Of a stretch of 11,363 nt of DNA, positions 2,378-2,861 are shown piece after piece. The notes beneath the pieces are model-generated. The model had not been told where the DNA came from. It worked only from the letters and a program-made list of their open reading frames with translations, and did no database searches. The translations under genes and the position numbers were made by a program. Position 1 is the first letter of the stretch, and every line of letters starts with the position of its first letter. The DNA is from a virus (Duplodnaviria; Heunggongvirae; Uroviricota; Caudoviricetes), in the IMG/VR virus record IMGVR_UViG_2740892322_000008. One strand, written 5' to 3'.

Positions 2378-2659
2378 TCATCGTTCCTTAAAGACGCCGT
2401 TTAACATGCCGATTGCCAGGCTTAAATGAGTCGGTGTGAATCCCTTCAGCGTTACCGTTTCGCGGTGCTTCTTCAGTACGCTACGGCAAATGTCATTGAC
2501 GTTTTTATCCGGAAACTGCTGTCTGACTTTTTTGATTTCAGAATTAGCCTGACGGGCAATGCTGCGAAGGGCATTTTCTTGCTGAGGTGTCACTGAACAA
2601 GCCCCATGTCGGCAAGCATAAGCACACAGAATATGAAGCCCGCTGCCAGAAAAATGCAT
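2378..2659 (-). CDS. Small Cys/His-rich protein (93 aa), possible lambda Ea8.5 homolog
   Basis: 93 codons, the length I recall for lambda ea8.5, in the xis-to-exo interval. N-terminus carries a H-x2-C-x3-C-x-H-x2-C cluster compatible with zinc binding. Sequence homology to Ea8.5 not verified. An alternative GTG start at 2593 would give 71 aa. Confidence 0.55.
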   Translation of the reverse strand: MHFSGSGLHILCAYACRHGACSVTPQQENALRSIARQANSEIKKVRQQFPDKNVNDICRSVLKKHRETVTLKGFTPTHLSLAIGMLNGVFKER

Positions 2660-2669
2660 TCAGTGGTTG

Positions 2670-2861
2670 TCATACCTGGTCTCTCTCATCTGCTTCTGCT
2701 TTCGCCACCATCATTTCCAGCTTTTGTGAAAGGGATGTGGCTAACGTATGAAATTCTTCGTCTGTTTCTGCTGGTATTGGCACAAACCTGACTCCAATTT
2801 GAGCAAGGCTATGTGCCAAATCAATACTCGTTCTTAACTCAACAGGAGATGCTTTGTGCAT
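2670..2861 (-). CDS. Lambda orf63-like small protein (63 aa)
   Basis: 63-codon ORF whose start overlaps the 3' end of the orf60a-like ORF by 28 nt, the same arrangement I recall for lambda orf63/orf60a downstream of exo. Confidence 0.6.
   Translation of the reverse strand: MHKASPVELRTSIDLAHSLAQIGVRFVPIPAETDEEFHTLATSLSQKLEMMVAKAEADERDQV

Follow-up and report, generated by a model that had tools for sequence, protein, structure and literature searches.

ORF27, a candidate coupled membrane-peptide gene in the leftward early operon of lambda-like phages

The locus and its stop-start overlaps

ORF27 is an open reading frame (ORF) of 27 codons found on the minus strand of an 11,363-nucleotide stretch of viral DNA (IMG/VR record IMGVR_UViG_2740892322_000008), which as a whole is called the window here. 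The frame is situated between a homologue of lambda orf63 and a gene of 71 amino acids (aa), g71, and it overlaps both of them (Table 1). Over positions 2370-2870 the window is 100% identical to an E. coli prophage inserted beside icd, and 96.6% identical to phage lambda. In lambda-like phages ORF27 is probably a genuine, translationally coupled gene for a small membrane peptide within the leftward early (pL) operon, and the coding and coupling parts of this reading are well supported by comparative evidence. The exo-xis segment of lambda is transcribed from pL, and by analogy the same presumably applies to the segment in this prophage.

A preliminary description, made from the letters of the window, had proposed a minus-strand frame of 27 codons that opens on an ATG in the orf63 stop overlap and ends on a TGA overlapping a GTG, the latter in frame with a 93-aa ORF (2659..2378), and had taken the two overlaps as a stop/start chain. 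All of this is confirmed. The ATG of ORF27 is found at 2673-2671 and the TGA of the 63-aa orf63 homologue at 2672-2670, giving a junction that reads GTATGA. At the other end the TGA of ORF27 is at 2592-2590 and the GTG, which is in frame with the 93-aa ORF, at 2593-2591; this junction reads CAGTGACA. The chain is conserved even where the upstream gene is not homologous to orf63.

When both overlaps are kept fixed and the 76 interior bases are shuffled, 34% of the shuffles remain open; openness by itself is weak evidence for a gene. By our own estimate, the chance falls to roughly 0.01 if the upstream TGA must also be preceded by an A, the GTG must be followed by one and the phase must be right.

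Overlaps of the ATGA type in phage and bacterial operons are associated with coupling by termination and reinitiation. ORF27 resembles such gene chains, as far as can be read from its sequence, in having ATGA at its 5' end, (A/G)TGA at its 3' end and weak internal Shine-Dalgarno elements. What is unusual is that a whole gene of 27 codons is fitted exactly between two overlaps. Since the Shine-Dalgarno-like stretch upstream of it, GAGAGAGA, is weak, initiation on ORF27 probably occurs by termination-reinitiation. The last codon, Gln27, varies between CAG and CAA; the change is synonymous in ORF27 but toggles the downstream start between GTG and ATG, GTG being found in 41 of 293 copies (14%).

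Table 1. ORF27, its signals and the surrounding features (window coordinates unless otherwise stated).
Feature	Position	Strand	Basis or remark
ORF27, 27 codons and TGA stop	2673..2590	minus	encodes MTTTECIFLAAGFIFCVLMLADMGLVQ
ATGA, ORF27 start overlapping stop of upstream gene (orf63 here)	2670..2673	minus	read from sequence
GTGA (ATGA in most relatives), ORF27 stop overlapping start of the 71-aa gene	2590..2593	minus	
Hydrophobic core CIFLAAGFIFCVLMLA, codons 6-21, between Glu5 and Asp22	2611..2658	minus	Kyte-Doolittle windows
GAGAGAGA, weak; sole Shine-Dalgarno-like stretch upstream of ORF27 in the orf63 context	2680..2687	minus	read from sequence
GGGG (GGGA in relatives), weak Shine-Dalgarno-like element inside ORF27, 8 nt upstream of the g71 start	2602..2605	minus	
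g71, 71-aa gene, true homologue of lambda/Stx-phage 'orf61'	2378..2593	minus	PGAP, PHROG 303, synonymous enrichment 17/8
N-terminal 22 codons of the 93-aa ORF, MHFSGSGLHILCAYACRHGACS; N-terminus of Phi24B/933W 'Orf61' in the literature	2594..2659	minus	
lambda orf61	1681-1866 of the lambda sequence (locus L003); window 2378-2689		
Antisense ORF, third positions coinciding with those of ORF27	2606-2791	plus	
orf63 homologue (DUF1382), 63 aa, stop overlapping ORF27 start	2670..2861	minus	
31-aa ORF, ATG overlapping g71 stop (ATGA)	2286..2381	minus	
orf60a homologue	2834-3022	minus	
exo	3013-3693	minus	

Selection, mosaic joints and the peptide

Copies of the locus were gathered from IMG/VR and from metagenomes by means of anchors lying outside ORF27. 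This gave 293 copies with ORF27, representing 33 haplotypes and 29 variant alleles. The alleles were scored as synonymous or non-synonymous relative to the consensus in each of the six frames, and the expected synonymous fraction, 0.24, was derived from all possible single changes with transitions weighted 2:1. In the frame of ORF27 there are 14 synonymous and 15 non-synonymous variants (p=0.004); the corresponding numbers are 11 and 6 for variants seen at least twice (p=4e-4), and 9 and 1 for those seen at least four times (p=2e-5). Across the same variants the frame of the 93-aa ORF gives 7/22, 2/15, and 0/10, while the third sense frame gives 6/23; both are near expectation. When sorted by codon position in ORF27, 15 alleles fall in third, seven in first and seven in second positions. 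The metagenome sample alone gives 8/3 (p=9e-4), and the two samples agree when they are analysed separately. The same method applied to intact copies only, since indels spoil fixed offsets, gives 17/8 for the accepted gene g71 and 9/15 for orf63. Among the sense frames, purifying selection at the amino-acid level is found in that of ORF27 only.

For variants seen at least twice omega is about 0.17, which is about equal to that of g71. The high-frequency synonymous alleles are found at Thr4 (ACG/ACT/ACA), Gly24 (GGA/GGG), and Gln27 (CAA/CAG). Replacements are seldom seen; T3A, F8L, and V26A, which are mild, recur, as do E5K, D22N, and a stop codon at Gln27. The preliminary description had named synonymous-site constraint across homologues as a check on the two frames. 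Such constraint is present in the 27-codon frame and absent from the N-terminal extension of the 93-aa frame.

An antisense ORF whose third positions coincide with those of ORF27 also gives a significant result, 7/3 for common variants and p=0.002-0.04. It was considered as the selected frame and rejected as a shadow of the sense frame, because a similar effect is seen opposite the accepted g71 (12/8), because it has neither a Shine-Dalgarno sequence nor a promoter-like site, because the commonest variants at the 3' end (Gly24 and Gln27) fall outside it, and because its signal is weaker than that of the sense frame in every case. Its C-terminus, moreover, differs wholly by context (61 aa vs 44 aa). 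RNA structure was likewise rejected as the source of the constraint, since the fold of 2560-2710 is weaker than that of shuffled sequences (minimum free energy z=+1.63). A regulatory leader peptide or attenuator upstream ORF does not fit this fold either, nor the fact that the peptide sequence is constrained. A consensus scan of 2000-3100 displayed no promoter-like site on either strand.

The copies differ in what is found upstream of g71. Most of them have the order orf63, ATGA, ORF27, (A/G)TGA, g71 (architecture A), and the ATGA overlap is kept although the last orf63 codon varies between GTA and GCA. In architecture B an unrelated N6-adenine methyltransferase of 185 aa takes the place of orf63. 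Homology to the window here starts exactly at the ATG of ORF27, the E. coli matches beginning at query position 198, which is window position 2673. The methyltransferase stop again forms ATGA with the ORF27 start, and a canonical GGGAGG is found 4-5 nt upstream. In architecture C both orf63 and ORF27 are replaced by a gene of 250 aa, with the joint inside the first seven codons of g71, and these g71 copies carry a GAGG Shine-Dalgarno sequence of their own. Joints between modules in the mosaic genomes of lambdoid phages are typically found at gene boundaries. The ATG of ORF27 is in the expected place in 107 of 108 metagenome copies outside architecture C, and the 108th has a deletion of 1 nt. 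Exceptions among the 107 are two with a stop at Gln27, which makes them one codon shorter, and one where the stop is changed to Gly. In a sample anchored on ORF27 itself, g71 is found downstream in 321 of 321 copies. It follows from this linkage and the architectures that a module starts with ORF27, and that g71 can, but need not, have it as an upstream partner.

No Pfam hit is recorded for the 250-aa gene of architecture C (1741-2493 of locus L090), which is found in some E. coli prophages. The g71 variant next to it has a different N-terminus, MTIEHNNALR.

It might be argued that ORF27 is translated only as a bridge over the 76-nt gap to g71, leaving the peptide as a functionless by-product. 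This is considered unlikely, even if the constant company of g71, the overlaps at both ends, the weak Shine-Dalgarno element and occasional GTG start of g71, the GAGG acquired by the copies that lack ORF27, and the young and narrow family would all agree with it. A bridge needs nothing but an open frame, yet the common variants are 9/1 in favour of synonymous changes, omega is low, and mild changes make up half of the six recurrent replacements. Extreme hydrophobicity, the highest among 50 small ORFs, would also be an odd accident in such a bridge.

A further alternative, which is judged quite improbable, is that ORF27 is an untranslated chance frame and that its third-position pattern comes from sampling, from haplotype hitch-hiking or from the antisense frame. 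The proportion of shuffles that stay open, the antisense signal, the non-independent allele counts from copies that are all at least 90% identical, and the absence of ORF27 from the curated annotation examined and from the searchable literature are what would be expected from this. The third-position excess (15 vs 7 and 7), the share of synonymous changes among common variants (9 of 10) and the agreement of two independent samples are not. The antisense signal is generic, being seen opposite g71 as well, and the antisense ORF is cut by the mosaic joint. That joint falls exactly at the ATG, brings in a new strong Shine-Dalgarno sequence and preserves the ATGA. The preliminary description had regarded a chance alternate-frame ORF as equally possible; the substitution pattern and the joint at the ATG now make it unlikely.

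The peptide encoded by ORF27 is very hydrophobic, as the preliminary description had anticipated when it noted a core resembling a membrane helix. Its grand average of hydropathy (GRAVY) is 1.62, the highest among 50 ATG-started stretches of 25-40 codons in the window, and its best 15-residue Kyte-Doolittle window scores 2.87. Judged by Kyte-Doolittle windows only, the apolar run from Cys6 to Ala21 comprises 16 residues, or 21 if Asp22 is tolerated, and the best 19-residue window scores 2.33. The peptide most likely inserts in the inner membrane, with a topology that is left open by the short core and the missing basic residues. Profile searches of Pfam, NCBIfam, PADLOC, and PHROGs gave no significant family match, and no homology to toxin, Kil-like or defence families. 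The best matches were MtrF (E=0.034, below its cut-off) and a PHROG membrane protein family (E=0.68), which is non-significant and the only PHROG match. Two proteins of 428 aa (P0006 and P0007) that share a 90% cluster with the 27-aa peptide are unrelated to it and were set aside as a clustering artefact.

g71 and the gene models called orf61

Three gene models have been placed over the same DNA: the 61-aa model of lambda, the 93-aa model and the 71-aa model, g71. ORF27 is in none of the records examined. The Prokaryotic Genome Annotation Pipeline (PGAP) starts the 71-aa protein, WP_000188879.1, at GTG 2593-2591 in the identical E. coli prophage, and the phage 434 record, like PGAP, places its start at the ATG or GTG that overlaps the ORF27 stop. 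An AlphaFold2 model of the g71 product displays three helices with a predicted local distance difference test (pLDDT) score of 72, and it has no significant fold match in the PDB. Searches with the 71-aa protein returned Escherichia sequences only; the apparently divergent matches were rejected as an error-ridden assembly, a copy disrupted by an insertion sequence and a truncated prophage end. Many copies of g71 are labelled 'cell division protein ZapA' by PGAP. The Pfam ZapA match has E=0.008, which is below the cut-off, and there is no fold match, so the name looks unsupported.

The preliminary description had also suggested that ORF27 might be the remnant of a deleted orf61-like gene. This explanation falls away, since the next ORF downstream is the orf61 homologue, with nothing missing from it. 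ORF27 is neither in the same frame as the lambda Orf61 family (PHROG 303 / 26061) nor homologous to it. In lambda orf61, Phi24B vb_24B_7c, and 933W L0070 (PHROG 303) the same DNA is read in another frame and gives another product, and the part of Orf61 that is conserved does not begin before the codon overlapped by the ORF27 stop.

A reading in which the real product is the long 'Orf61', of 93 aa in Phi24B and 933W and of 61 aa in lambda, with ORF27 as a mere alternative frame within it, has published usage on its side. These frames are used in the deposited annotations of 933W (L0070), Turner and lambda among others, PHROG 303 includes the 93-aa N-terminal extension, and published work treats the frames as the gene. 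The reading is nevertheless highly improbable. In the extension frame, 2594..2659, there are 3 synonymous and 18 non-synonymous variants overall, and 0/13 among those seen at least twice. Its upstream limit is polymorphic (TGA, GGA or AGA), which leads to ORFs of 61 to 104 aa, inspection of the sequence reveals no Shine-Dalgarno element before ATG 2659, and PGAP starts the protein at the GTG or ATG of the 71-aa gene. Residues 1-23 of the 93-aa form have been left out of model statistics, as two predicted models disagreed there (PMC8614690). The N-terminal 22 codons of the 93-aa ORF are thus probably not coding.

Lambda Orf61 has been described as a protein that 'appears truncated' (PMC8614690). 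The annotated lambda gene starts inside orf63, at a position equivalent to window 2689, and crosses ORF27 in another frame. This is explained by two differences from the window. Where the window reads ACT, lambda reads ACG, so that an in-frame TGA is lost and the frame extends back as far as an ATG within orf63; an extra A in an A-run (A7 vs A6) shifts the frame of the 71-aa gene once 22 codons have been read. Related copies have A6 in 182 of 186 cases and A7 in four. The g71 of lambda is in this way truncated to 29 residues, and the annotated orf61 looks like a composite of 32 residues of an unconstrained frame, 22 of the real gene and seven that follow the frameshift. Those last seven, too, speak against the 61-aa frame as the real product.

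The published genetics of orf61 may need to be read with this in mind. The lambda 'orf61' frameshift was made by deleting the bracketed C in CTTCATATTCTGTGTG[C]TTATG, and after induction the mutant phage was reported to develop with a delay (Bloch et al., 2014; PMC4195576). According to the primer in Table 1 of that paper, the deleted base maps to the first position of codon 18 of ORF27, window position 2622 on the minus strand, 29 nt upstream of the start of g71. The deletion turns ORF27 into a read-through product of 42 aa whose stop no longer lies at the g71 start. In a later study the annotated orf61 was replaced by a cassette, with the result that both lysogens and surviving host cells became more numerous (Dydecka et al., 2018; PMC6213356). 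Because of the annotated coordinates of orf61, such deletions also remove ORF27. As the g71 of lambda is truncated, we infer that losing ORF27 would account for the 'orf61' phenotypes no less well than losing 'Orf61'.

Our best guess is that ORF27 encodes a small membrane-acting peptide which adds to the pro-lytic 'orf61' phenotypes, either alone or together with the 71-aa protein. A more specific version is doubtful, but may be put forward tentatively since the 71-aa gene of lambda is already frameshifted and the only published point mutant hits codon 18. It would have ORF27, rather than the annotated Orf61, cause at least part of the lambda phenotypes (faster lytic development and fewer lysogens), acting in the inner membrane through a host factor of the lysis-lysogeny decision, for instance the CII-controlling FtsH/HflKC, or as a partner of the 71-aa protein.

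Weight of the evidence, comparisons and surroundings

ORF27 is present in lambda, 434, 933W, and VT2-Sakai, and the peptide is identical in lambda and 434. In lambda its AUG corresponds to J02459 position 31008. A tblastn search of all phage records matched 176 of them, including HK630 and many Shiga toxin (Stx) phages. The identity is at least 92.6% in 175, the 176th is a chance hit, and apart from this hit there is no match below 92%. In complete E. coli genomes the 84 nt of ORF27 are found in 4246 places, distributed over 3142 of 5426 genomes with up to five copies per genome, and O157:H7 genomes often have several. A scan of one genome per species revealed ORF27 only in Escherichia, apart from contaminating lambda DNA in unrelated genomes. 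The latter is seen at loci L215-L228: assemblies bearing the names Shewanella, Pseudomonas, Bradyrhizobium, Oceanobacillus, Kitasatospora and others contain DNA almost identical to lambda, some of it in contigs of about 48.4-48.5 kb that carry the A7 frameshift. It is almost certainly lambda spike-in or contamination.

ORF27 is missed by curated annotation. Among the RefSeq matches listed, the features lying under it are its two neighbours only, and automatic pipelines have occasionally called it a 'hypothetical protein'. The peptide string was not found in the searchable literature, nor in the supplements of the small-gene ribosome profiling study of the Sakai strain (enterohaemorrhagic E. 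coli). Tryptic proteomics would miss the peptide, because it contains no Lys or Arg and so has no tryptic sites.

Several points weigh against ORF27 as a genuine membrane-peptide gene. The divergence is shallow, with identities of at least 90% throughout, and is confined to Escherichia phages. The selection test rests on 29 variant alleles from copies that share ancestry and are not phylogenetically independent. Many of the singletons in ORF27 are non-synonymous, being either sequencing errors or tolerated changes, and the antisense frame, as described above, is significant as well. The uninterrupted apolar run is just 16 residues long, and a peptide with neither Lys nor Arg, flanked instead by Glu5 and Asp22, does not have the positive-inside signal that small membrane proteins usually carry. 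As g71 exists without ORF27 in architecture C, ORF27 is dispensable for g71. The published frameshift has a modest, plasmid-based phenotype, which a loss of coupling to g71 or an effect on the annotated 61-aa frame could also produce. The conserved exo-xis block is credited in reviews with five proteins, to which PMC8614690 adds just two new peptides from ribosome profiling, of 7 and 31 aa.

If ORF27 is the coupled gene that the comparative evidence suggests, ribosomes that have read the upstream gene, either orf63 or the Dam-like methyltransferase, would stop at its UGA and begin anew at the AUG overlapping it (AUGA). The 27-residue peptide would then be made, and its hydrophobic core of 16-21 residues, bracketed by Glu5 and Asp22, would enter the inner membrane as a single helix. 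Termination on the UGA that overlaps the AUG or GUG of g71 would in turn deliver ribosomes to g71, whose Shine-Dalgarno sequence is weak. The next junction, from g71 to the 31-aa ORF, is again ATGA and may prolong the coupled chain. Owing to the stop-start coupling, ORF27 and g71 would make up one two-gene module.

The type I toxins Hok, Ldr, TisB, Ibs, ShoB, and DinQ are short and very hydrophobic, DinQ having 27 aa. ORF27 resembles them in both respects, but it differs in having no signal of an antisense promoter or antitoxin RNA (consensus scan, 2000-3100), no sequence match to them, and neither a stand-alone promoter nor a structured leader, being embedded in an early lytic operon. The preliminary description had raised the possibility of a membrane-acting toxin or division inhibitor, as such small hydrophobic peptides can be. 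Lambda Kil, a division inhibitor, is a protein of 47 aa and is not known to be a hydrophobic helix. Like ORF27 it is a small product of the pL operon; there is no similarity between the two, and nothing found here ties ORF27 to division. AcrZ, KdpF, MgtS, and PmrR belong to the small single-helix inner-membrane proteins of E. coli. So does YohP, which is described in PMC7549839 as a 27-aa protein inserted into the inner membrane. ORF27 is like this group in its size, in the dominance of a single putative hydrophobic helix and in the tendency to be missed by annotation. It differs in that it has no sequence similarity to them and no basic residues. The E. coli proteins are also free-standing and stress-regulated, while ORF27 is phage-borne, part of an operon and overlapped at both ends.

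Should ORF27 be real, the block would have one gene more than the five usually listed. The N-terminus of Orf61 that has been used in structural modelling, and probably also in the constructs reported as insoluble, would then probably be wrong, and the published orf61 deletions and frameshift would affect either two genes at once or ORF27 alone. Lambda serves as the reference among temperate phages, and its exo-xis block is actively studied because it tunes the induction of Shiga-toxin prophages. ORF27 is found, unannotated, in more than half of the complete E. coli genomes. The interest of the candidate comes from its presence in lambda itself, where it forces a re-reading of orf61, and if it drives the 'orf61' phenotypes it would be a new player in the best-studied genetic switch.

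The minus strand of positions 1-5100 of the window constitutes the leftward early operon of a lambdoid prophage. It encodes an integrase, an excisionase, DUF4222 and ASCH proteins, a TraR/Orf73 homologue (2058-2279), the 31-aa and 93-aa ORFs, orf63, orf60a, exo, bet, and gam. The 31-aa ORF corresponds to the lambda peptide named orf2313 in this region after a ribosome profiling study (PMC8614690). When it was used as a control it displayed no synonymous enrichment (13/37), where indels in a T-run may confound the count. A hairpin resembling an intrinsic terminator, followed by a T-run, is found inside it at 2339-2357.

On the plus strand a 703-aa inverse autotransporter with IAT_beta, Invasin_D3, and Big_1 domains, similar to intimin and invasin, is encoded at 9252-11363, directly after the replication genes O and P, and could represent an adhesin gene carried as cargo by the prophage. 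A protein of 179 aa with a YdaT_toxin domain is encoded on the same strand at 6749-7288, between a cro-like gene and O, which is the position of cII in lambda.

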